Of a stretch of DNA of 32,268 bases, positions 1 through 26,300 are shown one piece after another (position 1 is the stretch's first letter; the number at the start of each line of letters is the position of its first letter). The notes under the pieces were generated by a model. It did no database searches, was not told the DNA's origin, and saw only the letters and a program-made list of their open reading frames with translations. The position numbers were made by a program, and so were the translations under genes. Origin of the DNA: Candidatus Limnocylindrales bacterium (GTDB lineage Bacteria; Chloroflexota; Limnocylindria; Limnocylindrales; CSP1-4); the NCBI GenBank assembly GCA_035759195.1, contig DASTVH010000216.1, forward strand, positions 1 to 32,268. Reading direction: 5' to 3'.

Positions 1-155
1 CGACCGGCCGGCTCGTCGGCGGCCTCGGCCTCGCCAGGGTCGTCGTCGGCGCCGGCGCCGGCGGCCCCGAGAGCATCGAGCACGGGTGCCGCCTCCTCGG
101 CGGTGAGGCGTCCCTCGGCCACGAGCCGGAGGACCTCCTCGACGGGATCAGACAT
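1..155 (-). CDS. SHOCT-like helical protein, N-terminal fragment (continues beyond window start)
   Basis: The ATG at 155 overlaps the stop of the upstream gene by 8 nt (ATGTCTGA). Translation is MSDPVEEVLRLVAEGRLTAEEAAPVLDALGAAGAGADDDPGEAEAADEPAG.... The 'L..L.EG.L...EA' helix is the same motif as at the C-terminus of the preceding protein. GC3 is high in this frame. Confidence 0.55.
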   Translation of the reverse strand, partial: MSDPVEEVLRLVAEGRLTAEEAAPVLDALGAAGAGADDDPGEAEAADEPAG

Positions 156-1206: not shown

Positions 1207-1622
1207 CGGTTCCTCCCGAGTGCGCGGATGGCGGCAGCGGCCTGGTCGGCGCTGATCTCGTGTCGGGCGAGCCGCTCGAGGATCTCGCGGCGGGTCGTGC
1301 CGGCCGGGGGTTCGTCGGCCGGCGCCGCGGCGTCGCCGGTGTCCTCATCGCCGCGGGCCCCGAAGCCCAGCGCCCGGACCAGCGCCTCGACGCGAGAGCG
1401 GACCGTGGGATAGGAGATGCCGAGCTCGCGCTCCATGTCGCGGAGATTCCCGCGTGACCGCAGGAAGCTCTCGAGGAGGGCCAGCTGGTCGCGTGAGAGG
1501 CGGCCGAAGCGGCCGACGCTGAAGTCGCCCTCGAGCGTCGTGCCGCAGCTCCGGCAGTGGAGCCGAGTCACGGCCAGCTCGTTCGAGCAGACGGGACAGG
1601 TGGAGATCACGTCGTGCGGCAT
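1203..1622 (-). CDS. DUF2089-type zinc-ribbon + HTH protein
   Basis: MPHDVISTCPVCSNELAVTRLHCRSCGTTLEGDF (CxxC...CxxC ribbon) is followed by LSRDQLALLESFLRSRGNLRDMERELGISYPTVRSRV (HTH). A GAGGA RBS lies 5 nt upstream of the ATG at 1622, so I prefer this start over the ORF-track start at 1652. It is first in the operon with the DUF4097 gene. Confidence 0.85.
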   Translation of the reverse strand: MPHDVISTCPVCSNELAVTRLHCRSCGTTLEGDFSVGRFGRLSRDQLALLESFLRSRGNLRDMERELGISYPTVRSRVEALVRALGFGARGDEDTGDAAAPADEPPAGTTRREILERLARHEISADQAAAAIRALGRNR

Positions 1623-1650
1623 GGAATCCTCATTGGTGTGCTTGGCGCAC

Positions 1651-1680
1651 AATATCGCCGATGACTATGACAAATGTCAA
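1651..1680 (-). promoter_or_regulatory. Candidate sigma-70-type promoter (TTGACA-N18-GATATT) for the DUF2089 operon, overlapped by palindrome TGACA-NN-TGTCA (1668-1679)
   Basis: The minus strand reads gtcgaccTTGACAtttgtcatagtcatcggcGATATTgtgcgcc...GAGGAttccATG. It lies in the only AT-richer patch of the divergent intergenic region (1623-1720). The 12-bp perfect palindrome overlaps the -35 element. Confidence 0.4.
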
Positions 1681-12102: not shown

Positions 12103-13482
12103 TCACCCTGCGCGCTGGCAGGCGTGGCACGGTCGGTCGGCCCGGAAGAGGATCTCGAGCAGGTCGTCGACGATCAGGGCCGGGTCCGCCCGGCTCTGGT
12201 TCGTCAGGACCGCGACGGTCAGCGATTCGCCCGGGAAGTGGCGGACGACCGAGCGGAACCCGAGGAGGCGCCCGCTGTGGCCGAACGTGAGGCGGCCGTC
12301 GATCGAGAACGCCTGCACGCCGAGTCCGTACGGCACCCGCGGCCGGTAGCCCGCCGTCGCGAGCACGCCGCCGAGCATCCGTGCGGTCATCTCCGGCCCG
12401 AGGACCTCGCCGGTGTAGAGCAGGCGGGCCCAGCGGGCCACGTCGGACGACGTGGCGGCAATCGAGCCGGCCCCCGCCGCCGCGGTGACGACCGAGGTGA
12501 ACGGGGCCACGCCGGTCCCGTCCGAGAGGTCGATCGGGGCGGCGCCGCGCGCGGCGCTCGCGAACCGGTAGCCGTGGGCGAGCGGCCGGCGCGGCTCCTC
12601 GACCGCCTGGTACCACGTGCCGTCGAACCCGTGGGGCGCCAGGATCCGGTCGCGGAGCGCCGTGGCGAGCGTCACCCCGCTCACCCGCTCGGCGATGAGC
12701 CCGAGGTACAGGTAGTTCGTGTTCGAGTACTTCCAGCCGGTGCCCGGCGCGAAGTACGGCTTGCCGACGTAGCGGAGCGTCCGCCGGACCGACCAGAAGG
12801 CGGCCGGCTCCGCCTGGAGCGCCCGATCGATCGGGGGATGGAGGAAGTAATCGTCCAGCCCGCTCGTGTGGTCGAGGAGCTGGCGGACGGTGATCCGCGC
12901 ATCGATCGCGGCGTCGGGCAGGTACCGCTTCGCTGACGCGTCGAGGTCGATGGCACCGTCGGCGGCGAGGGCCAGGATGAGCGCCGCGGTGTAGGTCTTG
13001 CTGACGCTGGCGATCGCGAAGGCGGTGTCGGTCTCGACCGGAACGCTCCCCGCGACGTCGGCGAGGCCGCTCACCCCGGTCCACGTCGTGCCGTCGCGGT
13101 AGACGATCGAGACCGAGAGCCCGGGGATCCCGAGCCGCTCCCGCGACTCGTCCAGCTGGCGCTGGAGGATGCCCTGGAGGGCGAGCGCGCGGAGCTCGGC
13201 GAGCGATGGGCCGGCGGGCGTCGGGGCGGGCGTCGGGGCGGGCGTCGGGGCGAGGCTCCCCGATGGCAGCGAGGCATCCGGCGGGCCGGATGCCGGCCCG
13301 ACCGACGCGCCGTCCGGGGCGGCCGAGCTGCCGGCGTCGACGATTGCCCCGACCGGGGGCGGCACGCTCGCGATGGTCGAGAGGCCGATCGCGCAGGCGA
13401 GCACACCGACGAGGGCGGTCGCCGCCGCGGCGACGCGGCGACCTCCCCGACGGCCGGGGCGCGGATCGGTGTGACCGGCCAT
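12103..13482 (-). CDS. Secreted/membrane-anchored serine hydrolase, beta-lactamase (class C / DD-peptidase) family
   Basis: The ATG at 13482 gives MAGHTDPRPGRRGGRRVAAAATALVGVLACAIGL (signal/anchor), then a PTPAPTPAPTPA linker. The SxxK active-site motif is in FAIASVSKTYTAALILAL. Later motifs are YSNTNYLYLG (Y.N) and FGHSG. Confidence 0.85.
   Translation of the reverse strand: MAGHTDPRPGRRGGRRVAAAATALVGVLACAIGLSTIASVPPPVGAIVDAGSSAAPDGASVGPASGPPDASLPSGSLAPTPAPTPAPTPAGPSLAELRALALQGILQRQLDESRERLGIPGLSVSIVYRDGTTWTGVSGLADVAGSVPVETDTAFAIASVSKTYTAALILALAADGAIDLDASAKRYLPDAAIDARITVRQLLDHTSGLDDYFLHPPIDRALQAEPAAFWSVRRTLRYVGKPYFAPGTGWKYSNTNYLYLGLIAERVSGVTLATALRDRILAPHGFDGTWYQAVEEPRRPLAHGYRFASAARGAAPIDLSDGTGVAPFTSVVTAAAGAGSIAATSSDVARWARLLYTGEVLGPEMTARMLGGVLATAGYRPRVPYGLGVQAFSIDGRLTFGHSGRLLGFRSVVRHFPGESLTVAVLTNQSRADPALIVDDLLEILFRADRPCHACQRAG
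13216..13251 (-). repeat. 12-nt x3 perfect tandem repeat (GGGCGTCGGGGC) encoding (PTPA)3 linker
   Basis: Read directly from the sequence: gggcgtcggggc gggcgtcggggc gggcgtcggggc. It is in frame within the serine hydrolase linker. Confidence 0.75.
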
Positions 13483-13591
13483 GATGGGGGGACGATAACG
13501 CGCCCGGCCGCCGACCCGGTGGCGAGCGCCCGGTCGGTCGGCGTCCGGAGCGCGGATCTCCGCGTCCGCCCGGGCCAGGTTGGAGGTGTCG

Positions 13592-13957
13592 ATGCTTCGG
13601 TCGATGGGGTTCCTCGGGGTTCGCACCGACGCGTACGAGGCGACGGTCGCGCTCTACCGCGACGTCCTCGGCCTCGAGCCGATCCTCGAGCGGCCCGGCG
13701 CGACCTGGTTCCGGGCGTCGGACGGCGCCCAGGTCCACGTCTACGGCCCGACCGACGAAGACCACGAGTTCTTCGGTCGCGGCCCGGTCGTGGGGCTCGT
13801 CGTCGACGACTTCGACGCGGCGCGGGCCGCGATGGTCGCGGCCGGGATCGAGTTCATCGGCGAGCCCCAGCGTGACGGCGAGTCGGCCTGGAACCACTAC
13901 CGCGGCCCCGACGGCAACGTCTACGAGATCATCGGGCCCGACCGGGACGCCCGGTGA
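13592..13957 (+). CDS. VOC/glyoxalase-bleomycin resistance-family protein
   Basis: GGAGG (13582-13586) lies 5 nt upstream of the ATG at 13592. Translation is MLRSMGFLGVRTDAYEATVALYRDVLGLEP...VHVYGP...VVGLVVDDFDAARAAMVAAGIEFIGEPQ...WNHYRGPDGNVYEI, the typical beta-alpha-beta-beta-beta VOC pattern. Confidence 0.8.
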   Translation: MLRSMGFLGVRTDAYEATVALYRDVLGLEPILERPGATWFRASDGAQVHVYGPTDEDHEFFGRGPVVGLVVDDFDAARAAMVAAGIEFIGEPQRDGESAWNHYRGPDGNVYEIIGPDRDAR

Positions 13958-15204
13958 CGGTGCTCGACGCGCCCGGCCTGCTGCGGGCGGTCGGCCTCCT
14001 GGCCGACGGACCCGTCGTCTGGGGCCGCCCGGTGCGGGCCCCACGGCCCGGCGTCTTCGTCGTCGAGCTGGCGCCGCCGGCCGCGACGGCGCCGATCGAG
14101 CTGACCCGCATCGGCAAGTGGGTCGAGCGCTTCCCGGGCATGCGGATCGACGGACGCCCGGCGACCTCCCGGGCCGTGGCCGCCCGACTCGCCGCCTTCT
14201 GGATCCCCTCGACTTCGGTCCTGTACGTCGGAGCGAGCACCGGCTCGGTGGCCGCACGGGTCGCGTCGATCGACCGGACGGTCCTCGGCGATCGGCGTCC
14301 ACACGCCGGCGGCCACTGGCTCAAGACGATCGCCGGGCTGGAGCGGGCGCGCATCTGGTGGGCCGCCACGGACGCGGTCGAGGAGTACGAGGACGCCCTG
14401 TTCGGCGCGTTCGCCATGGCAGTCCCGGCGGTCGATCGCGAACGCCTCCACGACCCGTCTTCTTTGATGCCGTGGGCGAACCTGAGGACAACCGCCGGCG
14501 AGCGCAAGGCCCACGGTCTCAGCGGGTACCTCGCCGTGGAGGACGCGGCCGCCGCCGCGCCGACGCCACGGATCGTGGACCTCGCGCCGGGTGTGGCGGA
14601 CGGGGCATCCGGGCTGCCGCCGACCCGCGCCGCCGGCGGCACGACCCGGCGAGCTCCCCGACCGACGAGCGGCGCGACGCCGACGCCCCGAACCCGGCCG
14701 GGCCGGGCGGCGAGGCCCACCCCGCCCCGGCCGGAGCCGATCTACCTCTCGGCCGAGGGGATCGAACGCCTGCGGGCCGAACACCGCGAGCTGACCGAGG
14801 TCCGCCGGCCGGAGGTGATCGGGCGGATCAAGGCCGCGAAGGAGCTCGGCGACCTCAAGGAGAACGCCGATTACACCGCCGCCCGCGAGGAGCAGTCGTT
14901 TCTCGAGGGAAGGATCGGGACGATCGAAACCCTCCTCCGGGACGCCACCCTGATCGAGGCGCCGGGCGCCGCGGCGGACGGCAGGATCGACCTCGGGTCG
15001 CGCATCTCGGTCGAGGAGGCGTCGGCGCCCGGCGAGGTGACGGTCTACGAGCTGGTCGGAACGGCCGAGGCGGATCCGGGCGCCGGCCGGATCTCGAACG
15101 CGTCGCCGGTGGGCCGGGCGCTCGTCGGACGACGGGTCGGCGAGACGGTCACGGTCCGGACGCCCCGCGGCGAGGTCGAGTACCGGATCGTCGCGGTCGA
15201 GTGA
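13954..15204 (+). CDS. greA: GreA-family transcript-cleavage/elongation factor fused to a ~260-aa N-terminal extension (GIY-YIG-like motifs + Pro/Arg/Thr-rich linker)
   Basis: The C-terminal ~155 aa form a complete GreA: IYLSAEGIERLRAEHRELTEVRRPEVIGRIKAAKELGDLKENADYTAAREEQSFLEGRIGTIETLL...ISNASPVGRALVGRRVGETVTVRTPRGEVEYRIVAVE. No in-frame ATG, GTG, TTG or CTG occurs in the 24 codons (SGATPTPRTRPGRAARPTPPRPEP) immediately upstream of the GreA domain. The GTG at 13954 overlaps the upstream stop (GTGA). Confidence 0.8.
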   Translation: MTVLDAPGLLRAVGLLADGPVVWGRPVRAPRPGVFVVELAPPAATAPIELTRIGKWVERFPGMRIDGRPATSRAVAARLAAFWIPSTSVLYVGASTGSVAARVASIDRTVLGDRRPHAGGHWLKTIAGLERARIWWAATDAVEEYEDALFGAFAMAVPAVDRERLHDPSSLMPWANLRTTAGERKAHGLSGYLAVEDAAAAAPTPRIVDLAPGVADGASGLPPTRAAGGTTRRAPRPTSGATPTPRTRPGRAARPTPPRPEPIYLSAEGIERLRAEHRELTEVRRPEVIGRIKAAKELGDLKENADYTAAREEQSFLEGRIGTIETLLRDATLIEAPGAAADGRIDLGSRISVEEASAPGEVTVYELVGTAEADPGAGRISNASPVGRALVGRRVGETVTVRTPRGEVEYRIVAVE

Positions 15205-15252: not shown

Positions 15253-15831
15253 TCAGGCCCGGCGGCCCTTGAGCAGGCTCCAGGCGAGGACCACGACGCC
15301 GATACCGATGAGGACGACCGGCAGAACGTCCGAGCCCACGAGGAACGGCTCCCCGGTGAGACCGATGAGGCCTTCGAAGAAGAGCCCGAAACCCACGAAG
15401 AGCGCGAGCCCGATCCCGAGCATCCGGAGACCGTTCGAGAGGTCCTCGGGCCGGTTGCGGAGCAGCCCGTAGAGCGTCAGCCCGAGGCCGCTGCCGCCCG
15501 GTCCTACGAGCGCCCAGGCGTAGGCCCAGGTCGCCCACAGGTCGGTCGCGTTCTGGACGGCGAGAACGAGGCCGACGGTCGTGACGATGCCGCCGGCGAC
15601 GGCAAGCCCGGAACCCTCACGGCCGCCGGCCGACAGGCCCGCGGCAAAGAGGACGAGCCCCGGGACGATGACGAAGAGCGGCCACCCGAACCGGGCGAGA
15701 TCGAGATCGAGTGCGCGCTCGAGGAGGAAGATCGCTCCGAGACCGATCAGGACGATCCCGATGACGATGCTCGTGCGTCGGGCGTCGCCCGATTCGCCCG
15801 GTGCCGCCGTCTGATCGGGCCCGGAGCTCAC
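15253..15831 (-). CDS. Polytopic membrane protein, LiaF-TM/DUF5668-like
   Basis: The GTG at 15831 lies 4 nt after the stop of the response-regulator gene. There are about six hydrophobic helices, for example SIVIGIVLIGLGAIFLLERAL, WPLFVIVPGLVLFAAGL and LPVVLIGIGVVVLAWSLL. It is the last gene of the kinase operon. Confidence 0.75.
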   Translation of the reverse strand: MSSGPDQTAAPGESGDARRTSIVIGIVLIGLGAIFLLERALDLDLARFGWPLFVIVPGLVLFAAGLSAGGREGSGLAVAGGIVTTVGLVLAVQNATDLWATWAYAWALVGPGGSGLGLTLYGLLRNRPEDLSNGLRMLGIGLALFVGFGLFFEGLIGLTGEPFLVGSDVLPVVLIGIGVVVLAWSLLKGRRA

Positions 15832-15835
15832 GGCG

Positions 15836-16501
15836 TCAGTCCCGGACAGGCTCGGCGAGCTTGTGCTCGACGGCCCAGAGGGCGGCCTGGGTCCGCGAGG
15901 CGAGTCCGAGCTTGCCGAGAATGTTCGAGACGTAGGTCCGGGCGGTCCGCTCGGTGATGAACAGCGCGGAGCCGATCTCCTTGTTGCTCATTCCCTGGCC
16001 GAGCAGCCGCAGGACGTCCTTCTCGCGATCGGTCAGCGGCTCGACCGGCTCGTCCTCGCCGGCCTTGCGGGCCCGCATGCGCTGGGCGAGGAGGCGGGCG
16101 ACCGCCGGGTCGAGGTGGACCTCGCCGGCGAAGGCGGCCCGGACCGCGGTCGCGACCTCCTCGGCCTCCGCGTCCTTGAGGACGTAGCCCGACGCACCGG
16201 CCTCGAGGGCGGCGGTGACCTTCTCCTCCTCGATGAAGCTCGTCATCGTGACGATCTCGGTCTCGGGCCGTTCGGCCTTGATCCGGCCGATCGCCGTCAC
16301 GCCGTCCATGTTCGGCATGAGCAGATCCATCAGGACGACGTCCGGCTGGAGCCGGCGAGCCATCGCGACGCCCTCGCTGCCGTCGGCCGCCTCGCCGACG
16401 ACCTCGATGTCGTCCTGGAGATCGAAGAAGACCCGTAGTCCCATGCGGACGACGGAGTGGTCATCGACGATCAGGACCCGGATCCGGGCGCTGTCGTCCA
16501 C
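15836..16501 (-). CDS. NarL/FixJ (LuxR-type HTH) response regulator
   Basis: AGGAGG lies 4 nt upstream of the GTG at 16501. The REC domain reads IRVLIVDDHSVVRMGL...DVVLMDLLMPNMDG...GASGYVLKD. The HTH reads LTDREKDVLRLLGQGMSNKEIGSALFITERTARTYVSNILGKLG. Confidence 0.9.
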   Translation of the reverse strand: MDDSARIRVLIVDDHSVVRMGLRVFFDLQDDIEVVGEAADGSEGVAMARRLQPDVVLMDLLMPNMDGVTAIGRIKAERPETEIVTMTSFIEEEKVTAALEAGASGYVLKDAEAEEVATAVRAAFAGEVHLDPAVARLLAQRMRARKAGEDEPVEPLTDREKDVLRLLGQGMSNKEIGSALFITERTARTYVSNILGKLGLASRTQAALWAVEHKLAEPVRD

Positions 16502-16604
16502 GTTGCCTCCTGACAGGGTGACCGGCCGGGCCGGCGTGGAACGGTCGCGGGGAGCTATGGTCGAGTCTAGCAAGGTGCGGTCCCTCCAGGGATTCGGTCG
16601 CGAT

Positions 16605-17006
16605 TCAGGCGACTGACGGTCGGGCAGCGGCGACGACCGCATCGATCAGCTCGTGCGGTCGGAAGGTCTTGCGGATGTAGGCATCGGCGCCGTCCAGGGC
16701 GGGAGTCGGCCGGTCGGCAGCGGTCCAGTTGAGGACGACGATGCGCGACGCCGGCGCGACCTCGCGAAGGCGGTCGACGAGGCTCCCGCCGAGGCCGTCC
16801 TCGGGCAGGCGGCAGTCGAGGATGATGACGTCGGGTGCGATCTCCGTGGCGAGCTCGACGGCGCGTTCGGGCTCTCCCGCGCTGCCGACGACGATGCAGC
16901 GACCCCCGATCGGCAGGAGCCGGGCCAGGCTCTCGCGGATTCGGTCGTCCGGATCGACGACCAGGACCCTGAGCGGGGCCGGTGCTGCGTGGCTGGGGTC
17001 GGTCAT
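16605..17006 (-). CDS. Stand-alone receiver (CheY-like) domain protein
   Basis: Translation is LRVLVVDPDDRIRESLARLL...DVIILDCRLPEDG...ADAYIRKTF. The acidic pocket, phospho-acceptor Asp and conserved Lys are in their expected positions, and there is no output domain. Confidence 0.8.
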   Translation of the reverse strand: MTDPSHAAPAPLRVLVVDPDDRIRESLARLLPIGGRCIVVGSAGEPERAVELATEIAPDVIILDCRLPEDGLGGSLVDRLREVAPASRIVVLNWTAADRPTPALDGADAYIRKTFRPHELIDAVVAAARPSVA

Positions 17007-17092
17007 GCCTGGAGTGTCAATCCGCCGACACCGCGCCGACCACCGCCCGTCGGCCGGATTCGTCTATGCCGAAGGGCGGACGGCGGCGTACG

Positions 17093-20000
17093 TCATTCGG
17101 CCGATGACACGGGCGGGATCGCCGGTTGGGCGGTTCGCGCCCGCTCGATCGCGGCGTCCGGCACGGCGACCTCGATGGTCGTCCCGGCACCCGGCTTCGA
17201 GGTCACCGTGAACGTCGCGCCGACCTTCTCGGCGCGGGCCCGCATTCCGGCCAGGCCGAGATGTCCGTCCGGGACCGCGGTCGCGTCGAAGCCCTTGCCA
17301 TCGTCGACGATCCGCAGGCGGAGGCCCGTCCCCTCGAGGCGCTCGATCGCGAGCGTCACCTGGCGCGCCGCGGCGTGTTTCACGATGTTGTGGAGCGCCT
17401 CCTGGCTGATCCGGTAGAGGACCTCCTCGAGGGCGATCGGCAGCCGTTCGGCCAGGTTGCTCGTCACGACGATCGGCAGGCCGATCCGGCCCTGGAGGGC
17501 CGCCGTGTGGGTCTTGAGGGCGGGCAGCAGGCCGTCCTGCTCGATGTTGCCGGGCCGGAGCTCGAAGATGAGCGCTCGCATCTCCGCGAGCGCCTCGCGC
17601 TGCAGGTCGCGGAGCGAGCCGAGCTTCTCCTTGGCGGCCGCCGGGTCGCGGTCGACGAGCAGCTCGGTCGTCCGGGTCACGAGGGTCATGCTGAAGAGCG
17701 CCTGCGTCACCGAGTCGTGCAGCTCGCGAGCGAGATGGGCCCGCTCCTGGCTCGAGGCCAGCTCGGCGGCCTGGCGGCGCAGGTCGCGCTCATAGCCCTC
17801 GCGCTCGCGCATGTCGCGGATCGAGCCGTGGGCCCCGCCGAACTCGCCGTCGCGGAGCATTCCGGTGAGCCAGACCTCGACCGGCACCGGGTCCCCGGTC
17901 CGCCGGCGGAGGTGGACCTGCAGCGGATGGACGCCGGTCGGGTCGCGGCGGACCGCCTCCCAGGCTGCCTGGGACGCCGCCTCGGCCGAAGGGTCGGTCA
18001 GCAGGCTGAAGTGCTTGCCGATGATCTCGTCGGGGGCGAAGCCGGTGAGCGGCTCGAGCCGGTCGCTGATGAACGTGAAGAGGCCCTTCTCGTCGACCGC
18101 CCAGACGACGTCGGGGGAGGCCTTGACGAGATACCGGTAACGCTCCTCGCTGGCCCGCAGCTGGCGCTCGAGGCGCTCCCGCTCGCGGATGTCGCGGGCC
18201 GAGCCGTGGATTCCGGCGAAGGACCCGTCGACGTTCGTCATGCCGATCGCGTTGACCTCGACCGGGACCCGTTCGTCGGCCCGGTTCCGGAGCATGAACC
18301 GGTGGACCTGCATCCGGGCCGGGTGGTCGACGAACCGCTGCCAGGCGTCGCCGGCCTCGGGGAACGAGTCGAGGTCGATGATCGAGGCGAACTGGGTCCC
18401 GAGCAGGTCGGCCGGCCGGGAGCCGGTGAGGTTCTCGACGGTCTCGGAAAGGTACGTGTAGCGGCCCTCGGCGTCGGTCGAGAACACGACGTCCGGCGAG
18501 TTCTCGACGAGGAATCGGTAGCGCTCCTCCGATTCGCGGAGCTCGCGCTCGAGGCGCTCCCGTTCGCTGATCTCGCGCGAGACGCCCTGGACGCCCATGA
18601 ACCGGCCGTCCTGCTCCACGCCGATCATGCTCACCTCGAACGGGAGCGCGGTGCCCGACGCGGTCGTCAGGCGGATCCGGATCGTCCGGGCGACCGCGGG
18701 CTCGGCGTGGAGGTCGTCCCACGTCCGGGCCGCGAGCTCGCTGTCCTCGGGCGCGACGAAGTCGATGAACGGATGGCCGATGCTCTCCTCGGGCGACCGA
18801 CCGGTGACGAGCTCCGACGACTCGCTGATATAGGACAGGCGGCCGAGACGGTCGATCGAGAAGAGGATGTCCGGCGAGTTCTCGACGAGGAAGCGGTAGC
18901 GCTCCTCCGACTCGCGCAGCTCGCGTTCGAGGCGTTCGCGCTCGCTCACGTCGCGAGCCGAGCCGTGGATCCCCGCGAACACACCGTCGACGACGACGCC
19001 CCGGGAGCTGGCCTCGAACGGGATGTGCCGGCCGTCCTTGTGGATCAGCAGGAGGCGGTTCGTCAGCTCGAGGCTGGGATCGGCCCGGATCCGGTTCCAG
19101 GCAACTCCGGCGGTCGTCGGGTCCTCGTAGAAGATGATGTCGCGGAACGGCCGGCCGACGAGGTCGTCCGGCCGGTAGCCGAGGGCCCGGTCGACGCTCT
19201 CCGACACGTAGACGAACGTGCCGCCCGGATCGATCGAGAAGATGATGTCGGGGGCGTTCTCGACGAGGAAGCGGTAGCGCTCCTCCGACTCGCGCAGCTC
19301 GCGCTCGAGGCGATCGCGCTCGCTCATGTCGCGGACGGAGCCGTTCGCGCCGGCGAAGCGGCCCCCGGCGTCGAGGGTGCCGTAGGCGCTGAACTCGGCG
19401 GGAATCGCGTGACCGTCGCGGTGGAGCAGGTTCAGGCGGCCGCGCAGCTCCTGGAACTCCTCGGTCATGCCCTCGGTCCAGTCGAGCTCGGCGACGTCGC
19501 GCGACGACTCGTGGACGAGCGCCCCGAAGTGCTTGCCGAGCAGGTCCTCCGGGCGCCAGCCGGTCAGGCGCTCGCAGGTGTCGGACACGAACGTGAAGCG
19601 GGCGTCCGCGTCGATCGACCAGATCAGGTCCGGAGAGTTCTGGACGAGGTGGCGGTAGCGGGCCTCCGACTCACCGAGGAGCTCGTAGAGATTCGAGTTC
19701 GTCAGGGCGATCGCCGCCTGGTCGGCGAGGCCCTGGAGCAGGTCGAGCTCGTCGGGCAGGATCTCGCGCGGCTCGCGGTAGCTGATCGCGAGCGTCCCGA
19801 TCACCTCGCCGGCCGGGGCCCGGAGCGGCGCCGCGGCCATCGCCCGCAGCCCCAGCCGCTCGGCGACGAGCTCGTCGTCCTGCTCGTGGGGGATCCGCGG
19901 GTCGGTCCGGTAGTCGGCCGTCCAGACCGGCTGGACCTCCTCGGCAGCCAGGCCGTTGATTCCGCCCCCGAGGGGGAACTGCATCTGCTTCAGCCAGGCC

Positions 20001-23000
20001 TCAGTGCCCTCGTCCATCCCGCCCGCGACGATGACCGGGACGAGATACGTGCCGTCCTCGGCCATTCGGGTCAGGTGGGCGCCGTCCGAGCCGAGCAGGC
20101 GGCGCGACTCCTCGACGACCCGGGCGAGGATCTCGCCGGGGTCGCGAAGCGACGTGATCCGGGCCGTGATGTCGCGCAGCGAGCGCTCGGTCTCGGCGCG
20201 GTACGCGAGCGCGGTCTGGGACCGCTCCAGGGCCTCGATCAGGCGGGCATTCGTGATCGCGATCGCCGCCTGGGTGGCGAGCGAGCGGATCCGGGCGGCG
20301 TCCTCGTCGTCGAACGCGTCGGGCCGCACCGAGTACACCTCGAGGGCGCCGAGCGGACCGGATTCGCCGGTGACCGGGGCGATGATCATCGATCGGAAGC
20401 CGGTCACCTCGAAGAACCGGTCGTTGATCGCCGAGTCCGGGAAGTGCCCGGCGAGGTCGTCGCGGGCGATGACGACGCGGTCCTCGGCGACCGCGAGGCC
20501 GGTCGCACCCACGCCGATCGGGATCGTCAGCTGGGCGATCTCCTCGTCGGTGAACCCCTCGCGCACGCCTGAGTCGTAGGCCCAGCGGACCTGGTGACCG
20601 CTCGCGTCGACGAGGTCGAGGATCGAGCCGTCCGCGTCGACGAGGCGCCGCGCGGCGTCCACGACCTGCTGGAGGAGCGGCCCAGGCTCACGGATCGCCG
20701 TGATCCGCGCGGCGATCTCACGGAGCGACTGCTCGGCCTCGGCCCGGCGGGCCAGCTCCGAGCTCGAGCGGTCGAGCTCCTCGATCAGCCGCGCGTTCGT
20801 GATCGCGATCGCCGCCTGGATCGCGATCGCCTCGATGAGCCGGGCGTCGTCACGGCCCCAGGCGTTCGCCCGTTTGGTATAGATCGTCAGGGCTCCGAAC
20901 GGCCGGCCGCCCTCGCCGAGGAGCGGGGCCGACATCACCGACTGGATGCCGACCTCGCGGACGAAGCCGTCAGGCCCGCTCGAGTGGATGAAGCTGTCGT
21001 CGTTGAGGTAGTCGCCGGTGAAGGCCACCCGGCGCTCCATGACGGCCCGGCCCGAGACGCCCTGGTCGAGGGATTCGTCCGGGGCATCGGGCCAGTCCCA
21101 CGTGCCGGTCGGGGTCGTCGTCGCCGAGTGATAGGCCCAGCGCAACAGGCCCGACTCGGCGTCGATCAGGTCGATCCGGGCCTCCTCCGCGTCGAGCAGC
21201 CTGGCGGCCTCGTCGACGGTCCGCTGGAGGACGTCGCGGGCGCCCTTCGTCGCCGAGATCCGAGCCGCGATCTCACGGAGCGCCTGCTCCTCCTCGGCGC
21301 GGCGGCGGAGCTCGGTCCGCGAGCGGTTCAGCTCGGTGATGAGGCGCGCGTTCTGGATCGTGATCGCGGCCTGGTCGGCGAGCGCCTGGAGCAGATCGGC
21401 CTGAGCGTCGTCGTAGGCGTGCGGGCGGGCGCTGCTCACCGAGATCGCCCCGAGTGAGCCGTGTTCGCCGCGCATCGGCGCCGACAGCACCGAGCGGTAG
21501 CCGGTGGTCGCGACGAGGTCGTCGGAGCGGGGCACATGGTGGAACCGATCGTCGGCGAGGTAGTCGTCGGTCAGGAACCACTCGCCGCGCTCGACGGCAA
21601 GGCCGGCGATCCCCTCGCCGATCTTGAACTGGAGGTCGCGCCCCTCGGCTCGCGTCCGGATCGACATCTCCCCCGAGGCATAGGCCCACGAGAGCGTGTC
21701 GCCCTCGAGGAGGTCGATCCGCGCGGCGTCGGAGTCAAGGAGGCGGCGGGCCTCGTCGACGGTCTGCTGGAGCACGGCGTCGGGATCCCGAATCGCCGAG
21801 ATGTTCGCCGCGATCTCGCGCAGCGAACGCTCGGCGTCGGCCCGCCGGCCGATCTCCTCCCGGGACCGGCCGAGCTCGTCGATGAGCCGGGCGTTCTGGA
21901 TCGCCACGACCGCCTGGTCGGCGAACGCCTCGATGAGCGCGGCGTCCTCGTCGTCGTACGCGTCGCGGCGGACCGTCGCGACCTTGAGCACGCCGAGCAG
22001 CCCCTCGCCGCTGATGAGCGGCGTCGCGACCGTCGAGTGGAGGCCGGTCTGGCGGACGAACTCGTCGGATGCCTCGACGTGGATGAAGCGATCGTCGGTC
22101 AGGTAGTCACCGGTGACGATCGCCCGGCGCCCGGCGATCGCCGGCCCGTTGATGCCCCGGTCGCCGGGCAGGCCGGTGGCTGCCTGCGGGCCGGCCGCCC
22201 CGAGGTCGCCCTCGCCGGCGACGTAGGCGCGCCGGATCAGGCCGGTCTCGGGATCGACGAGGTCGAGCTGGGCGCGCTCGGCGTCGAGCAGGCCGCGCGC
22301 CGCCTCGACGACCTGCTGGAGGAGGTCGGCCGGGTCGCGGATCGCGGTGATCCGGGCGGCGATCTCGCGAAGTGCCTGCTCGGCCCGGGCCCGCCGCCGA
22401 ATCTCCTCGCGAGAGCCGGCGAGCGCCTCGATGAGCCGGGCGTTCTGGATCGCGATCGCGGCCTGGTGGGCGAGTGCCTCGACGAGGGCGACCTCCTCGG
22501 GTTCGAAGGCGCCGGCCTCGGGCCAGCCGACCTGGAGGACGCCGAGGAGGCCCTCCTCCCCGGTCATCGGCGTCACGATCAGCGACCGGATGCCGTCCTG
22601 GCGGACCGCCTCGTCGAGGCTCGGGTCGTGCTCGAAGCCGGTGTCGGCCATGTAGTCCGTGCTCACGACGGTCCGCCCGCTCGCGATCGCCTTGCCCGAG
22701 GCGCCGTAGCGGAACGGCCGGCCCTCGTCGTCGACCGCCGCCCCGCCGATGACATCGCCGGCGCCCGGGACGTAGGTGAAGCCGACCCGACCGGCGGCCG
22801 GCACGACGAGGTCGATCCGGGCCCGGGCCGCGCCGAGGAGGCGGGCCGCTTCGTCGACGACGTGCTGGAGCAGGTCGGCCGGGTCGCGGATCGCGGTGAT
22901 CCGGGCGGCGATCTCGCGGAGCGCCCGCTCCGCGTCGGCCTGGCGGCTGGCGGCGGCCCGCGACCGGTCGAGCTCCTCGATGAGTCGGGCGTTCGTCATC

Positions 23001-24166
23001 GCGATCGCCGCCTGACCGGCCAGCGCCTGGATGAGGTTCGCGTCGTCCTCGCCGAACGCCTCGACCTCGGACGTATAGACGGTCAGCGTGCCGAGCGGTC
23101 CCCGATCGCCGATGAGCGGCACCGCGACGACGGAGCGGATCGCGTGCTTGCGGACGTGTTCGTCGGGCGCCTCGGCGTGTTCGAAGCGGTCGTCGTTGAG
23201 GTAGTCGCCGGTGAAGACCGGACGCCCCTCGCGGACCGCCCGGCCTGAGATGCCCTCTCCGGCCTTCGCCTCGCCGCTGCCGGCGATCGGCCCGAGGCCC
23301 GGCTTGCGGCCGGTCGTGGCGTCGAAGGCCCAGTAGAGCCCGCCCGACGCCTCGTCGAGGATGTCGATCCGGGCGCCGTCGGCCCCGAGCAGCCGGGCCG
23401 CCTCGTCGACGGTCCGCTGGAGGACCTCGTCGGAGTCGTGGAGGGCGATGATCCGTCCGCCGATCTCCCGGAGCGCCCGCTCCACGTCGGCCCGACGCTC
23501 GACGTCGGCCCGCGAGCGGTTCAGCTCCTCGATGAGATCGGCGTTGGCCATCGCCGCCGCGGCGTGGTCGGCCAGCGCGCGGACGAGCGCCACCTCGGCG
23601 TCGCCGAAGGCGTCGGGTCGGCTCGTGAACGTGCCCATCGCACCGAACGTCCGGCTCCCGCTGACGAGCGGAGCGACGACGAACGAGTGGATGTCGAGGT
23701 CGCGGACGAGCCGATCGGCGTCCGGGAAGTGGACGAACGAGGGGTCGTTCGGGTAATCGCCGGTCGAGACCACCTCACCGGTCGCCACGGCCCGCCCGAA
23801 CATCCCCACGCCGACGTCGAGCTGGAGCGAGCGGACCCACGCACGGCGGCGGTCGTCGGTGATGCCGGCATCGTGGGCGAAGCGGAGGACGCCCTCGTCG
23901 TCGAGCAGGTAGGCCATCGCCCCGTCGGAGCGAAGGAGGCGGGCGGCCTCGGCGACCGCCCGGCGGAGGATCGCGTTCACGCCGGAGGCGGCCGGCGCGG
24001 CGGCGAGCGTCTCGGTCGCCCCGGGCGCGTCCGTCGCGGACGAGCCGTCGACCAGGGAGCCGTCGTCGGACGGGCGCTTCCGACCGGGGGCGCGCGCTGC
24101 GGGCTTCTGGCCATCGTCCGGCTCGGGGGGAAGCCCGGCCGGACGCGACGGTCGGGTGGTTGCCAC
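17093..24166 (-). CDS. Soluble giant sensor histidine kinase: 8 x GAF, 5 x PAS, HisKA_3, HATPase_c (2357 aa)
   Basis: No TM segment is present. Eight ~185-aa GAF-like modules are each closed by an NARLIEEL.RSR.E..RRA.AE.ALREIAARI.AIRDP..LLQ.VVDEARRLL linker. Five ~125-aa PAS-like modules are each closed by ERERLERELRESEERYRFLVENSPD. The H-box is LARELHDSVTQALFSM (HisKA_3), the N-box is EALHNIVKHA, G1 is DDGKGFD and G2 is GLAGMRARA. The start (GTG 24166) is uncertain because no RBS is seen. Confidence 0.9.
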   Translation of the reverse strand: MATTRPSRPAGLPPEPDDGQKPAARAPGRKRPSDDGSLVDGSSATDAPGATETLAAAPAASGVNAILRRAVAEAARLLRSDGAMAYLLDDEGVLRFAHDAGITDDRRRAWVRSLQLDVGVGMFGRAVATGEVVSTGDYPNDPSFVHFPDADRLVRDLDIHSFVVAPLVSGSRTFGAMGTFTSRPDAFGDAEVALVRALADHAAAAMANADLIEELNRSRADVERRADVERALREIGGRIIALHDSDEVLQRTVDEAARLLGADGARIDILDEASGGLYWAFDATTGRKPGLGPIAGSGEAKAGEGISGRAVREGRPVFTGDYLNDDRFEHAEAPDEHVRKHAIRSVVAVPLIGDRGPLGTLTVYTSEVEAFGEDDANLIQALAGQAAIAMTNARLIEELDRSRAAASRQADAERALREIAARITAIRDPADLLQHVVDEAARLLGAARARIDLVVPAAGRVGFTYVPGAGDVIGGAAVDDEGRPFRYGASGKAIASGRTVVSTDYMADTGFEHDPSLDEAVRQDGIRSLIVTPMTGEEGLLGVLQVGWPEAGAFEPEEVALVEALAHQAAIAIQNARLIEALAGSREEIRRRARAEQALREIAARITAIRDPADLLQQVVEAARGLLDAERAQLDLVDPETGLIRRAYVAGEGDLGAAGPQAATGLPGDRGINGPAIAGRRAIVTGDYLTDDRFIHVEASDEFVRQTGLHSTVATPLISGEGLLGVLKVATVRRDAYDDEDAALIEAFADQAVVAIQNARLIDELGRSREEIGRRADAERSLREIAANISAIRDPDAVLQQTVDEARRLLDSDAARIDLLEGDTLSWAYASGEMSIRTRAEGRDLQFKIGEGIAGLAVERGEWFLTDDYLADDRFHHVPRSDDLVATTGYRSVLSAPMRGEHGSLGAISVSSARPHAYDDAQADLLQALADQAAITIQNARLITELNRSRTELRRRAEEEQALREIAARISATKGARDVLQRTVDEAARLLDAEEARIDLIDAESGLLRWAYHSATTTPTGTWDWPDAPDESLDQGVSGRAVMERRVAFTGDYLNDDSFIHSSGPDGFVREVGIQSVMSAPLLGEGGRPFGALTIYTKRANAWGRDDARLIEAIAIQAAIAITNARLIEELDRSSSELARRAEAEQSLREIAARITAIREPGPLLQQVVDAARRLVDADGSILDLVDASGHQVRWAYDSGVREGFTDEEIAQLTIPIGVGATGLAVAEDRVVIARDDLAGHFPDSAINDRFFEVTGFRSMIIAPVTGESGPLGALEVYSVRPDAFDDEDAARIRSLATQAAIAITNARLIEALERSQTALAYRAETERSLRDITARITSLRDPGEILARVVEESRRLLGSDGAHLTRMAEDGTYLVPVIVAGGMDEGTEAWLKQMQFPLGGGINGLAAEEVQPVWTADYRTDPRIPHEQDDELVAERLGLRAMAAAPLRAPAGEVIGTLAISYREPREILPDELDLLQGLADQAAIALTNSNLYELLGESEARYRHLVQNSPDLIWSIDADARFTFVSDTCERLTGWRPEDLLGKHFGALVHESSRDVAELDWTEGMTEEFQELRGRLNLLHRDGHAIPAEFSAYGTLDAGGRFAGANGSVRDMSERDRLERELRESEERYRFLVENAPDIIFSIDPGGTFVYVSESVDRALGYRPDDLVGRPFRDIIFYEDPTTAGVAWNRIRADPSLELTNRLLLIHKDGRHIPFEASSRGVVVDGVFAGIHGSARDVSERERLERELRESEERYRFLVENSPDILFSIDRLGRLSYISESSELVTGRSPEESIGHPFIDFVAPEDSELAARTWDDLHAEPAVARTIRIRLTTASGTALPFEVSMIGVEQDGRFMGVQGVSREISERERLERELRESEERYRFLVENSPDVVFSTDAEGRYTYLSETVENLTGSRPADLLGTQFASIIDLDSFPEAGDAWQRFVDHPARMQVHRFMLRNRADERVPVEVNAIGMTNVDGSFAGIHGSARDIRERERLERQLRASEERYRYLVKASPDVVWAVDEKGLFTFISDRLEPLTGFAPDEIIGKHFSLLTDPSAEAASQAAWEAVRRDPTGVHPLQVHLRRRTGDPVPVEVWLTGMLRDGEFGGAHGSIRDMREREGYERDLRRQAAELASSQERAHLARELHDSVTQALFSMTLVTRTTELLVDRDPAAAKEKLGSLRDLQREALAEMRALIFELRPGNIEQDGLLPALKTHTAALQGRIGLPIVVTSNLAERLPIALEEVLYRISQEALHNIVKHAAARQVTLAIERLEGTGLRLRIVDDGKGFDATAVPDGHLGLAGMRARAEKVGATFTVTSKPGAGTTIEVAVPDAAIERARTAQPAIPPVSSAE
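17800..19690 (-). repeat. Intragenic tandem array of 5 PAS modules, period ~375-380 nt (approximate bounds)
   Basis: A conserved ~90-nt linker block recurs near 18130, 18480, 18860, 19240 and 19650. There is a 48-nt perfect direct repeat at 18878-18925 and 19256-19303. Confidence 0.8.
19690..23990 (-). repeat. Intragenic tandem array of 8 GAF modules, period ~543-555 nt (approximate bounds)
   Basis: A conserved linker block (GTGATCCGGGCGGCGATCTCGCG-like, plus strand) recurs at about 20154, 20700, 21255, 21798, 22347, 22896 and 23447. There is a 47-nt perfect direct repeat at 22323-22369 and 22872-22918. Confidence 0.8.
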
Positions 24167-24215
24167 GACCGGAGGATAGCCCCCGTCGCGTGAGGGCGGG
24201 ATTGGCGCGCGTCGG

Positions 24216-24229
24216 TGACGTCTACGTCA
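24216..24229. promoter_or_regulatory. Perfect palindrome TGACGT-CT-ACGTCA in the kinase / 4-TM gene divergent intergenic region
   Basis: Read directly from ggTGACGTctACGTCAtc. It lies 50 nt upstream of the annotated kinase start and about 190 nt upstream of the ATG at 24416. Confidence 0.3.
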
Positions 24230-24415
24230 TCCGTCGCATGGGACCACCGACGAACGCGCCGAATCGGCACCGGCCAACGTCGGCCCGCCGAACTCGACCC
24301 GTGCCCACCGTCGCCCCGGGAGCCGCCCCCCGACCATGCCCCCAGACGCCGAGCGGACGCCCGGCGAAGCCCGACACCGCGCTCCCACAGCCGTGCACTT
24401 GAGGTACTCGACCGA

Positions 24416-24850
24416 ATGACTGCCCGCACCGCCGACCGCGCACTTGGTCCCGTCGACGTCGCCCTGCGCATCGCGATCGTCGGCCTGACGCTGGCCACCG
24501 GATACATCCACTCGACCCTCGGTGGCCTCCTGTTCACGCTGAACGCCGTCGGTTATCTCGTCGCCGCCGTTGCGATGGTCGTCCCGCTCGGGATCGCCGT
24601 CCGGTTCCGCTGGGTCGTCCGCCTCGGCCTGATCGGCTACGCCGCCACGACGATCATCGGCTGGGCGATCCAGGGCCCGTTCTACTCGACGGCCTACATC
24701 GCCAAGGGGATCGAGGTCGCGCTCATCGTCCTGCTCGCGATCGACTTCGCGCGCATGGACGGCAACCCGATCACGGTGATCAGGAACGAGCTCGGTCAGC
24801 TCTCGGCCCGTCTCGGCCGCCGGGCGGCCTCCGGCTCGGCCCGCGCCTGA
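24416..24850 (+). CDS. Four-TM membrane protein of unknown function
   Basis: Translation from the ATG at 24416 is MTARTADRALGPVDVALRIAIVGLTLATGYIHSTLGGLLFTLNAVGYLVAAVAMVVPL...VVRLGLIGYAATTIIGWAI...GIEVALIVLLAIDFA. The upstream part of the ORF-track ORF is Arg/Pro-rich and was rejected. Confidence 0.65.
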   Translation: MTARTADRALGPVDVALRIAIVGLTLATGYIHSTLGGLLFTLNAVGYLVAAVAMVVPLGIAVRFRWVVRLGLIGYAATTIIGWAIQGPFYSTAYIAKGIEVALIVLLAIDFARMDGNPITVIRNELGQLSARLGRRAASGSARA

Positions 24851-24898
24851 TCCGCGTCGACCCACACCCCACCCGTCGCATCACGGAGAGCACCTGAC

Positions 24899-25282
24899 AT
24901 GAAGCGCCTGCTCACGACCCTCGGCCTGGCGGTCTTCGCCGCCGTCCTCGTCGCCTGTTCGTCCGGTGCGGCCGCCCAGCCGCCGTCGGCCGGCCCGGTC
25001 GACCCGGACGCGCCGGTGATCGTCGCCCAGAACAACGCGTTCAGCCCCTCGACCGTCAAGGTTGTCGCCGGCAAGGCGTTCACGCTGACGCTCGACAACA
25101 AGGACGCGGCGCCGCACAACGTCGCGATCTTCACGGACTCCAGCGCGTCCGAGTCGGTCTCGATCGGCGAGATCGTCAGCTCGAAGCAGGTCAGCCAGCA
25201 GGTGCCGGCCCTCGAGAAGGGTGAGTACTTCTTCCGCTGCGACGTCCACAGGGAGATGACGGGCACGATCGTCGCCGAATAG
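24899..25282 (+). CDS. Cupredoxin (amicyanin/plastocyanin-like type-1 copper) lipoprotein
   Basis: The lipobox is LGLAVFAAVLVAC|SSG. The type-1 Cu ligand pattern is His (APHNVAIF) ... Cys-x2-His-x2-Met (FRCDVHREMTG). GGAG lies 10 nt upstream of the ATG. Confidence 0.85.
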   Translation: MKRLLTTLGLAVFAAVLVACSSGAAAQPPSAGPVDPDAPVIVAQNNAFSPSTVKVVAGKAFTLTLDNKDAAPHNVAIFTDSSASESVSIGEIVSSKQVSQQVPALEKGEYFFRCDVHREMTGTIVAE

Positions 25283-25305
25283 GGCCGATCCCACCCGCCG
25301 CTCAC

Positions 25306-25335
25306 GCGAAGCCCCCGGCACCCCGGGGGCTTCGC
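25306..25335 (+). terminator. Strong GC hairpin (13-bp perfect stem, 4-nt loop) downstream of the cupredoxin gene
   Basis: Sequence is GCGAAGCCCCCGG-cacc-CCGGGGGCTTCGC, 24 nt after the stop codon. No U-tract follows (cgattcggg), which is common in high-GC genomes. Confidence 0.6.
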
Positions 25336-25409
25336 CGATTCGGGAGGATCGGACCGGCGGGTCCGGCAGCCCGCATAATCGGTGGCGCCGCCAGGGGAGT
25401 CACGACCCG

Positions 25410-26300
25410 ATGCTCGAGATCATCGACCTGTCCAAACGATACGGCGCCGTCGTCGCGCTCGACGGCGCGTCGTTCACGGCCGCGCGGGGCCGCCTGGTCG
25501 GCTTCCTCGGCCCGAACGGGGCCGGCAAGACGACGACGATGCGCTGCATCTTCGGGCTCGCGACTCCCGATTCGGGCGCCACCCACTGGGAGGGCCGGCC
25601 GATCGACCGGGAGACCCGGCTCCGCTTCGGCTACATGCCGGAGCAGCGCGGCCTCTACCCTCGGATGCGGGTCGGCGAGCAGCTGAGCTACTTCGCCCAG
25701 CATCACGGCATGTCGGGCCGGGAGGCGGACGCGGCGGCAAAGCGCTGGCTCGAGCGGCTGGGCCTGGCCGACCGCGTCGACTCGAAGCTCGAGGACCTGA
25801 GCCACGGCAACCAGCAGCGCGTGCAGCTCGGCGCCGCGCTCGTCCACGATCCCGAGCTGCTCGTGCTCGACGAGCCGTTCTCCGGTCTCGACCCGATCGG
25901 GATCGCGACGATGTCGGAGATCCTCCACGAGCGCGCGGCGGCCGGCGTCGGGGTCGTGTTCTCGAGCCATCAGCTCGATCTTGTCGAGGACGTCTGCGAG
26001 GACGTCGTGATCATCAATCGCGGCCGGATCGTCGCGCAGGGGGCCATCGAGGAGCTGCGGACCGCGTCGGAACGACGTCACCTCGAGGTCGAGGTCGAGG
26101 GCAGCGGTGGGGATTGGCTCGACGGGCGCGACGACGTGTCGGTCGTCGAGCGCCGGGGCGACCTGCTCCGGCTCACCGTCGGCTCCAACGTCGATCTGGC
26201 CGGGCTGCTCGCCGCCGCCTCGGCGGCCGGCCCGGTCCGCCGTTTCGCCTTCCAGCCGCCCGCCCTCTCCGAGCTGTTCATGGAGGTCGTCCAGTCATGA
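25410..26300 (+). CDS. ABC transporter ATP-binding protein (ABC-2/NatA-like)
   Basis: Walker A is GFLGPNGAGKTT, the Q-loop is YMPEQRGLY, the signature is LSHGNQQRV and Walker B is LLVLDEPFSGLDP. The H-loop is in VVFSSHQL. There is a C-terminal DUF4162-like extension. Confidence 0.9.
   Translation: MLEIIDLSKRYGAVVALDGASFTAARGRLVGFLGPNGAGKTTTMRCIFGLATPDSGATHWEGRPIDRETRLRFGYMPEQRGLYPRMRVGEQLSYFAQHHGMSGREADAAAKRWLERLGLADRVDSKLEDLSHGNQQRVQLGAALVHDPELLVLDEPFSGLDPIGIATMSEILHERAAAGVGVVFSSHQLDLVEDVCEDVVIINRGRIVAQGAIEELRTASERRHLEVEVEGSGGDWLDGRDDVSVVERRGDLLRLTVGSNVDLAGLLAAASAAGPVRRFAFQPPALSELFMEVVQS

Follow-up and report, generated by a model that had tools for sequence, protein, structure and literature searches.

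Kinases of the HisKA_3 class (NarX/DesK/LiaS) are recognised by a DHp domain in which a DxxxQ motif follows the phospho-acceptor His, by an HATPase_c domain with N, G1 and G2 boxes, and by a NarL/LuxR regulator encoded nearby. All of these features are found in a minus-strand gene cluster on contig DASTVH010000216.1, from the metagenome-assembled genome (MAG) of a Candidatus Limnocylindrales bacterium; the whole stretch analysed, 32,268 nt, is called the window below. The first gene of the cluster encodes a soluble kinase of 2357 residues with eight GAF and five PAS modules in tandem, and this kinase and the genes that follow it are the subject here.

Several described systems resemble parts of the locus. 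Like DosS/DosT-DosR of Mycobacterium tuberculosis (DevST-DevR), it combines a soluble kinase having N-terminal tandem GAF domains, HisKA_3 and HATPase_c with a regulator of the NarL family, and the GAF and catalytic (CA) domains of DevS/DosT, as well as DevR, are among the matches to solved structures. However, the similarity to DosS/DosT is weak (E 5e-5 to 1e-3), those kinases have two GAF domains instead of eight GAF and five PAS, none of the eight GAF modules here has a His at the heme-ligand position of DosT, and the Dos system has no adjacent gene for a REC-only protein. LiaFSR and VraTSR of the Firmicutes share the HisKA_3 kinase class, include the nearest solved relatives (VraR and VraS), and have in common with the locus a protein with a LiaI-LiaF-like transmembrane (TM) hairpin. 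Unlike the kinase here, LiaS and VraS have TM helices, sense within the membrane and are devoid of a GAF/PAS array; in addition, LiaF and VraT carry a C-terminal domain that is missing from the membrane protein of the cluster, the gene order differs, and the membrane gene here is dispensable in divergent orthologues.

Other comparisons concern single parts. CyaB2 and PDE2A/5A/6, in which two GAF folds sit on a long connecting helix that forms a dimer spine, are the best matches to a model of two of the GAF modules, but they bind cAMP or cGMP through an NKFDE motif, have only two GAF domains and drive a different effector. Single-domain response regulators (CheY-like) act as phosphate sinks or kinase modulators. 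The REC-only protein resembles them in adjoining a kinase that has the DxxxQ motif and in keeping the Asp, Thr/Ser and Lys residues; it differs in that the cluster has no Hpt protein or second kinase and its acidic pocket reads D-x-D-D instead of DD. Such a role is putative. A precedent for one input per module is PtxD (NpF2164) of Nostoc punctiforme, with seven tandem bilin-binding GAF domains, each an independent sensor (PMC5812497). Like the kinase, it carries many GAF domains in tandem within a single signalling polypeptide, although cyanobacteriochrome GAF domains sense light with a bilin bound through a conserved Cys, the kinase here has a single Cys, located in a PAS module, and both output and lineage differ.

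A defining feature of each of the Dos, Lia, cyanobacteriochrome, NreB and cyclic nucleotide-binding GAF families was looked for and not found, and on these sequence criteria the locus is thus not a member of any of them. By analogy, the system would work like a cytoplasmic GAF-HisKA_3/NarL pathway of the DosS/DosT-DosR type, with a Lia/Vra-like core and an added single-domain receiver. Every part of it belongs to a known domain family. Striking as it is, the architecture varies an ordinary two-component system and introduces no new kind of system or signalling principle. Searches of the literature for Limnocylindria kinases or signalling, or for an architecture of 8-9 GAF domains with HisKA_3, found no paper.

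The four genes have the coordinates and gaps given in an earlier note, which had been made from the sequence of the window; the coordinates of the open reading frames (ORFs) match exactly.

17093..24166, minus strand: kinase gene, 2357 residues, soluble sensor histidine kinase (from the ORF list, Pfam, GC content at third codon positions [GC3] and hydropathy)
16605..17006, minus strand: REC-only gene, 133 residues (ORF list, Pfam)
15836..16501, minus strand: NarL-type regulator gene, 221 residues, GTG start, with D13, D14 and D59
15253..15831, minus strand: membrane protein gene, 192 residues, about 5-6 TM segments, sub-threshold LiaI-LiaF-like TM hairpin

The gaps are 86 nt between the kinase and REC-only genes, 103 nt between the REC-only and NarL-type genes, and 4 nt between the NarL-type and membrane genes. 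The kinase starts at a GTG that is kept across orthologous loci as GTGGCnACnACCCG. The NarL-type frame is open over 15836..16642 (minus strand); its true start is the GTG at 16501, which is preceded by a conserved CAGGAGG and agrees with the NCBI call. The three partner proteins are identical letter for letter to NCBI HEU4919855-57 (from a 'Candidatus Limnocylindrales bacterium' MAG), where they are annotated generically as 'response regulator transcription factor' and 'hypothetical protein' only. GC content is 73%, and antisense ORFs within the kinase gene (e.g. 17126..20572 on the plus strand, 1148 residues) were rejected as high-GC shadow ORFs, GC3 supporting the minus-strand frame only. 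An Rfam search of the window gave no match.

The kinase and its thirteen modules

Pfam confirms the count of eight GAF and five PAS modules, HisKA_3 and HATPase_c that the earlier note had proposed. GAF_2 (1.5e-141), GAF and GAF_3 each match in 8 stretches, and PAS (1.4e-60), PAS_4 and PAS_9 each in 5. HisKA_3 (PF07730) matches residues 2141-2206 (1.5e-16; 61.1 bits against a cut-off of 24), and HATPase_c (PF02518) matches residues 2248-2337 (2.7e-12; 47.5 bits against 26.4).

19697..23986, minus strand: GAF array, modules G1-G8 (Pfam, repeat analysis)
17795..19687, minus strand: PAS array, modules P1-P5 (Pfam, repeat analysis)
17549..17746, minus strand: HisKA_3 DHp domain, residues 2141-2206
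17156..17425, minus strand: HATPase_c catalytic domain, residues 2248-2337

The GAF modules have a period of 181-185 residues (G1 61-208, G2 209-392, G3 393-575, G4 576-758, G5 759-939, G6 940-1124, G7 1125-1306 and G8 1307-1490), and each is closed by a helical linker of 45 residues, QAAIAIxNARLIEEL..RSR....RRA.AE.ALREIAARITAIRDP. The PAS modules repeat every 126-127 residues (P1 1494-1619, P2 1620-1745, P3 1746-1871, P4 1872-1998 and P5 1999-2124) with the linker RERLERELRESEERYRFLVENSPD.

The catalytic core has the residues expected of its class. The phospho-acceptor is His2150 (codon 17717-19), directly followed by the DxxxQ phosphatase motif (H2150-DSVTQ), a motif whose role after the phospho-acceptor His has been described (PMC3510030). 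The ATP-binding boxes read EALHNIVKHA (N), DDGKGF (G1) and GLAGM (G2), and the closest solved relatives of the CA domain are VraS (4e-16), DesK (7e-15) and DevS. By its sequence the kinase is catalytically intact, and bifunctional kinase/phosphatase activity is expected of it. The claim that it has no transmembrane segment holds: a Kyte-Doolittle scan of the 2357 residues peaks at a 19-residue mean of 1.56, so that none of the stretches is above 1.6. Pfam found no HAMP domain in it. The equivalog matches of the cluster proteins in NCBIfam are all sub-threshold; they include LiaS and MadS, the latter rejected as a label, as MadS is an Enterococcus membrane kinase.

The kinase frame is uninterrupted over 7074 nt, and its GC3 of 0.94 identifies it as coding. 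Its module copies share 32-54% identity in protein and 60-82% in DNA, with no long exact repeats. They are thus old, diverged duplicates, which argues that the repeat number is no artefact of assembly.

The kinase belongs to a family of at least 517 Limnocylindria proteins with G4-G9 and P1-P5. Modules in homologues were counted with hidden Markov models built from the window's own modules, and module types were assigned by best match with a score margin, after single-linkage clustering had failed (types chained through common linkers). Homologues range from G4P3 to G9P5, so that the window's G8P5 is near the top of the range but not its maximum; it is shared by three independent homologues (79-89% identity), and the largest member, P0001, is a G9P5 protein of 2522 residues. 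The array that the earlier note had described is real and cytoplasmic; its architecture is not unique.

The homologues differ by whole modules in a fixed order. There are 77 architectures among 121 homologues, with the order collinear in 115 of them and with G1 (113), G8 (119) and P1 (118) nearly universal. By best-match typing, each module of the window has a one-to-one orthologue in relatives. G3 orthologues, for example, are 83-96% identical to G3, compared with at most about 50% to any other module. Shorter orthologues lack entire modules: L011 has G1-G2-G5-G8, L009 has G1-G2-G3-G5-G8, and P0010 is without G3 and G4, while some proteins carry a ninth GAF type between G7 and G8. Such differences are present already among close relatives, whose modules are 80-94% identical to those of the window.

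The ratio of nonsynonymous to synonymous divergence (dN/dS) is 0.1-0.6 for every module having an orthologue, values that are overestimated or uncertain at a GC3 of 0.94. Each GAF type also has its own segment conserved among orthologues, which lies between beta2 and beta3 according to the model described below. These observations indicate that each module has a conserved identity of its own under purifying selection. Since each of the thirteen can be matched one to one in relatives, evolves at a dN/dS below 1 and carries a conserved segment specific to it, none of them is filler, and the array does not reduce to a few domains separated by coiled coil.

In four long-read ('MFD') MAG loci (L007, L010, L014 and L015) the orthologous kinase genes are broken by frameshifts, which are probably sequencing indels and not pseudogenes. 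These frameshifts affect the automatic protein calls for this kinase family.

The array has a fixed geometry. All seven GAF-GAF linkers have exactly 45 residues between the same landmarks, and in 25 orthologues the start of the last PAS module is 143-144 residues from the phospho-acceptor His. The linkers follow an a/d heptad pattern whose centre is polar or rich in Ala, and strong hydrophobics make up 49% of one register compared with 24% overall, a pattern that fits a marginally stable signalling coiled coil. Because the linkers are equal in length, a whole module could be gained or lost without a shift of the helical register. An AlphaFold2 model of G2-G3 (mean pLDDT, the predicted local distance difference test, 79.5) has two GAF folds joined by one continuous helix of 51 residues, after which a short IRDP break precedes the first helix of the following GAF. 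The structures nearest to the model, namely CyaB2, PDE2A/5A/6 and phytochrome GAF-PHY, are all tandem dimers of GAF type linked by a helix. The loops that contain the module-specific segments are low in confidence.

The regulator, its partners and the upstream elements

Close homologues of the kinase and the syntenic loci are all from Chloroflexota/Limnocylindria soil MAGs, and an actinobacterial origin, which the GC content of 73% might suggest, was rejected on this ground. Synteny was assessed in 14 related MAG loci with enough flank, and the conserved order is ABC-ATPase <- cupredoxin <- small TM protein <- / -> kinase -> REC-only -> NarL-type -> membrane protein <- greA ... beta-lactamase-fold protein. 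As the earlier note had proposed, the kinase is paired with a NarL-type regulator and a REC-only protein; both adjoin it in all 14 related loci that reach that far. The synteny shows that the cluster is neither a product of mis-assembly nor peculiar to the window. The four-gene neighbourhood is kept less strictly, since 12 of the 14 loci have the membrane gene, whereas L008 and L013 lack it but keep the kinase, REC-only and NarL-type genes.

The NarL-type regulator (Response_reg plus GerE in Pfam) hardly varies among the 14 loci: identity is 95-98% in 12 of them and falls to 83-89% only in L008 and L013, which are the two most divergent. By comparison, the best tblastn segment of the kinase in these genomes has 47-65% identity in most loci, and the values are 61-81% for GreA and 74-84% for the ABC ATPase. 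In the seven loci measured, dN/dS of the regulator is 0.02-0.06, compared with 0.16-0.52 for its neighbours (REC-only 0.28-0.47, membrane protein 0.28-0.52, GreA 0.16-0.45). An overlapping gene was ruled out as the cause, since synonymous divergence is normal (dS 0.39-0.61). The 90%-identity cluster of the regulator has 1012 members. Its best match among solved structures is VraR (3e-56), followed by NarL and DevR, and its NCBIfam equivalog scores are all below cut-off (NarL 195 against 250, MadR 173 against 300). The sequence comparisons thus point to a regulator under very strong constraint, that is, a nearly frozen output combined with a highly plastic input, and the locus probably marks a core regulator of the Limnocylindria.

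The REC-only protein matches Response_reg (PF00072) alone (50.8 bits against a cut-off of 30.2). Each of the 15 sequences has D64, T95 and K113, and in the acidic pocket a conserved but atypical D18-x-D20-D21 takes the place of the acidic pair. The protein thus has the features of a phosphorylatable receiver, and, with NarL-type receivers as its best family matches, it is a plausible second substrate of the kinase.

The membrane protein matches LiaI-LiaF-like_TM1 with 24.5 bits, under the Pfam cut-off of 27, and weakly DUF7525 besides. Its family has 1480 matches; the members listed are 165-238 residues long and named 'hypothetical' or 'DUF5668', about 40% of them carry PF18917, and they have no other Pfam domain. 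In Pfam, the C-terminal domain of LiaF (DUF2154/toastrack-like) is absent from the protein of the window. The functional likeness to LiaF that had been suggested for it is thus not borne out: this domain is lacking, the Pfam match falls short of its cut-off, and neither of the two most divergent loci has the gene. The protein is more likely a co-expressed output (LiaI-like) or an accessory than a sensor partner, and its gene probably shares a promoter with the NarL-type gene, which ends 4 nt before it.

Conserved elements are found upstream of three of the four genes.

24222..24231, minus strand: box A, kinase copy (GATGACGTAG), 56-65 nt upstream of the kinase GTG, conserved in orthologous loci
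24173..24178, minus strand: TATCCT, a hexamer resembling a -10 element, 6 nt ahead of the kinase GTG
17088..17097, minus strand: box A, second copy (AATGACGTAC), overlapping the kinase stop codon, 82-91 nt upstream of the REC-only ATG
17013..17031, minus strand: palindrome GTGTCGG-N4-CCGACAC, which reads GTGTC-N8-GACAC in the window and closes with GACACT, 6 nt ahead of the REC-only ATG
16561..16573, minus strand: invariant element TTGCTAGACTCGA in the gap between the REC-only and NarL-type genes, which precedes the NarL GTG by about 60 nt and reads as an extended -10 (TGn-TAGACT)

Box A (consensus RATGACGTAS) occurs twice in the window, compared with 0.07 copies expected, and none of 100 shuffles reached two. 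Eleven of the 14 orthologous loci likewise have copies at these two positions; in addition, L013 has a third copy, only the one on the REC side is found in L007, and L008 lacks an exact match. In loci with a long gap between the kinase and REC-only genes (413-494 nt), the second copy is still 66-68 nt from the REC-only ATG. This constant distance ties the copy to the REC-only gene instead of the stop codon of the kinase. Box A is a candidate for a shared regulatory or autoregulatory site.

The palindrome, which is conserved across loci and unique in the window, is a candidate operator, RNA hairpin or -10-like element. No Shine-Dalgarno sequence precedes the start codon of the kinase gene or of the REC-only gene, and the hexamers are arranged alike before the two starts (TATCCT-CCGGTC-GTG and GACACT-CCAGGC-ATG), which suggests that both transcripts may be leaderless. 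The TTGCTAGACTCGA element, of which the window and each of the 14 loci have a single copy, may serve the NarL and membrane genes as an internal promoter. Together, these conserved elements are suggestive of three separate transcription units, which makes the single four-gene operon of the earlier note doubtful.

Proposed mechanism and alternatives

The explanation that we consider best, and regard as probable, is a two-component locus conserved in the Limnocylindria, in which a modular, multi-input cytoplasmic kinase acts through a NarL-type output. The kinase would be a cytoplasmic HisKA_3 enzyme, presumably a homodimer, with kinase and phosphatase activities and a catalytic core of the Lia/Vra/Des type. 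Its sensor would be a rod of GAF and then PAS modules along one continuous helical coiled-coil spine; each module would probably add an input of its own, a small ligand or a protein contact, that travels along the spine to the DHp domain. The equal linkers would let whole modules enter or leave without a change of register, which would explain the collinear orthologues from G4P3 to G9P5, anchored by G1, G8-P1 and the catalytic core. Phosphate would pass to the highly constrained NarL/VraR-like transcription factor, the real output, and also to the REC-only receiver, which may act most likely as a competitor (sink or buffer) or else in feedback on the kinase. The membrane protein would be co-expressed with the regulator, probably from the internal promoter, as an output or accessory.

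How signals pass and combine through tandem cytoplasmic modules and coiled-coil linkers is a long-standing two-component question, usually approached with engineered chimeras. The kinase family is a natural series for it, at one conserved chromosomal position in an abundant, uncultured soil lineage, with an identical core and linker geometry and a near-invariant output regulator. Since orthologues differ in which collinear modules are present (G4-G9, P1-P5), the function of the array is directly testable module by module. The size of the array is itself not very surprising; the useful part is collinear module gain and loss on a fixed geometry with a near-invariant regulator.

A bolder form of this explanation, which we consider rather unlikely, would make the locus a master switch of the Limnocylindria and a 'plug-in' logic device, with up to 14 typed modules, each having a different metabolite or partner. 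Evolution would change its set of inputs by adding or removing entire modules in register, with the output left frozen, and the three cis elements, including box A before both the kinase and the REC-only genes, would make up an autoregulatory circuit under the NarL-type regulator.

A number of observations weigh against the multi-input explanation or limit it. Most concern the inputs: in sequence, the modules match solved GAF and PAS domains weakly, and no ligand, cofactor motif or pocket was identified in any module, so that ligand binding by all thirteen would go beyond these data. The proximal heme-ligand His (His147 in DosT, His149 in DosS) is absent from G1-G8, which have R/R/R/R/A/R/E/A at the DosT position when aligned to 2vzw. 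The NKFDE motif (N[K/R/Q]-Xn-F-X3-DE) has no match to a strict or a relaxed regular expression in residues 1-1500. NreB-type oxygen sensor kinases have a four-Cys cluster in a PAS domain. The whole kinase has a single Cys, C1531 in P1, which argues against covalent bilin and Fe-S clusters, there being neither an attachment Cys in the GAF domains nor the four-Cys cluster of NreB. The P2-P5 types are found in few homologues, which leaves orthology in the PAS array less secure; the module dN/dS values are imprecise, as noted; and part of the diversity of architectures comes from short-read metagenome contigs, while some long-read loci are frameshifted. Dimerisation and signalling through the coiled coil are suggested by a monomer model and by analogy. 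The promoters are assigned from conservation and resemblance to consensus, and consensus scans of the gaps for sigma-70 promoters and terminators found nothing. Finally, by its sequence the REC-only protein could be a relay or an allosteric partner as well as a sink.

The array might be mostly structural, a spacer, an oligomerisation rod or a docking scaffold, with sensing confined to the universally retained G8-P1 unit beside the catalytic core. The lack of a known ligand or cofactor signature in any module would fit, as would the low model confidence of the module-specific loops, and the near-universal presence of G1, G8 and P1 while internal modules come and go implies that the kinase works with as few as 4 GAF modules. 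A pure spacer, however, would not be expected to have a strongly conserved, type-specific segment (in the beta2-beta3 region of the G2-G3 model). Moreover, the internal modules keep one-to-one orthology with 60-96% identity and dN/dS of 0.15-0.6, and their collinear order implies that they are not interchangeable. This explanation is accordingly judged unlikely. A mis-assembled repeat number or a decaying pseudogene is barely credible, although the source is a short-read metagenome (k141-type contig names occur among the relatives) and several related long-read loci have frameshifts. The 7074-nt frame is unbroken with a GC3 of 0.94, the intragenic repeats are merely 60-82% identical without a long exact stretch, the three independent homologues have G8P5 as well (79-89% identity), every module is under purifying selection, and comparable arrays are found in long-read MAGs.

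The remaining alternative is an envelope-stress module of the Lia/Vra type, in which the membrane protein would sense damage and control the soluble kinase as LiaF does LiaS, the array having only a modulating role. It draws on the solved structures, among which VraR is nearest to the regulator (3e-56) and VraS to the CA domain, on the sub-threshold matches to LiaS and MadS, and on the membrane protein, whose gene begins 4 nt past the regulator gene and which has the LiaI-LiaF-like hairpin match, with PF18917 in about 40% of the family members listed. Yet that hairpin match is below the Pfam cut-off (24.5 against 27), the NCBIfam equivalog scores are all far under theirs, and the C-terminal domain of LiaF is missing from a family whose listed members (165-238 residues) are too short for one. 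The kinase, for its part, has neither a TM segment nor HAMP. A position downstream of the regulator makes the membrane gene more target-like (cf. LiaI) than sensor-like, and its loss from the two most divergent loci, which keep the kinase, REC-only and NarL-type genes, also disagrees with a sensor. We consider this reading improbable, more so than a structural array, and prefer the multi-input kinase with a NarL-type output.

Neighbouring genes in the window

Upstream of the kinase lies a divergent unit with conserved synteny (24416-27490, plus strand), which consists of genes for a small TM protein, a cupredoxin-like protein (24899-25282), a DrrA-type ATPase of an ATP-binding cassette (ABC) transporter (25410-26300), and a permease of the ABC-2 type that carries a large loop (about 26297-27490, plus strand). 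The first of these genes (24416-24850, plus strand), between the kinase and cupredoxin genes, encodes a hydrophobic protein of 144 residues with high GC3; it is 70-83% conserved in all related loci and has a tandem duplicate in L007. With this gene, the true divergent intergenic region is reduced to 249 nt.

On the other side of the cluster, the greA frame (13471-15204, plus strand) is open for 416 residues, with GreA domains in the last ~155 residues only. A separate small ORF with high GC3 (13499-13957), upstream of the GreA part, has no Pfam match and is 51-59% conserved in several related loci. Toastrack-type domains are those carried by LiaF-like proteins. A Toastrack (DUF4097) protein is encoded at 148-1652 (minus strand), beside a DUF2089 zinc-ribbon/HTH regulator, 14 kb away from the cluster and not linked to it. 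At 1859-5326 (plus strand) there is a gene for a STAND-like regulator of 1155 residues, with an AAA_16 ATPase, TPR repeats, Trans_reg_C and BTAD.

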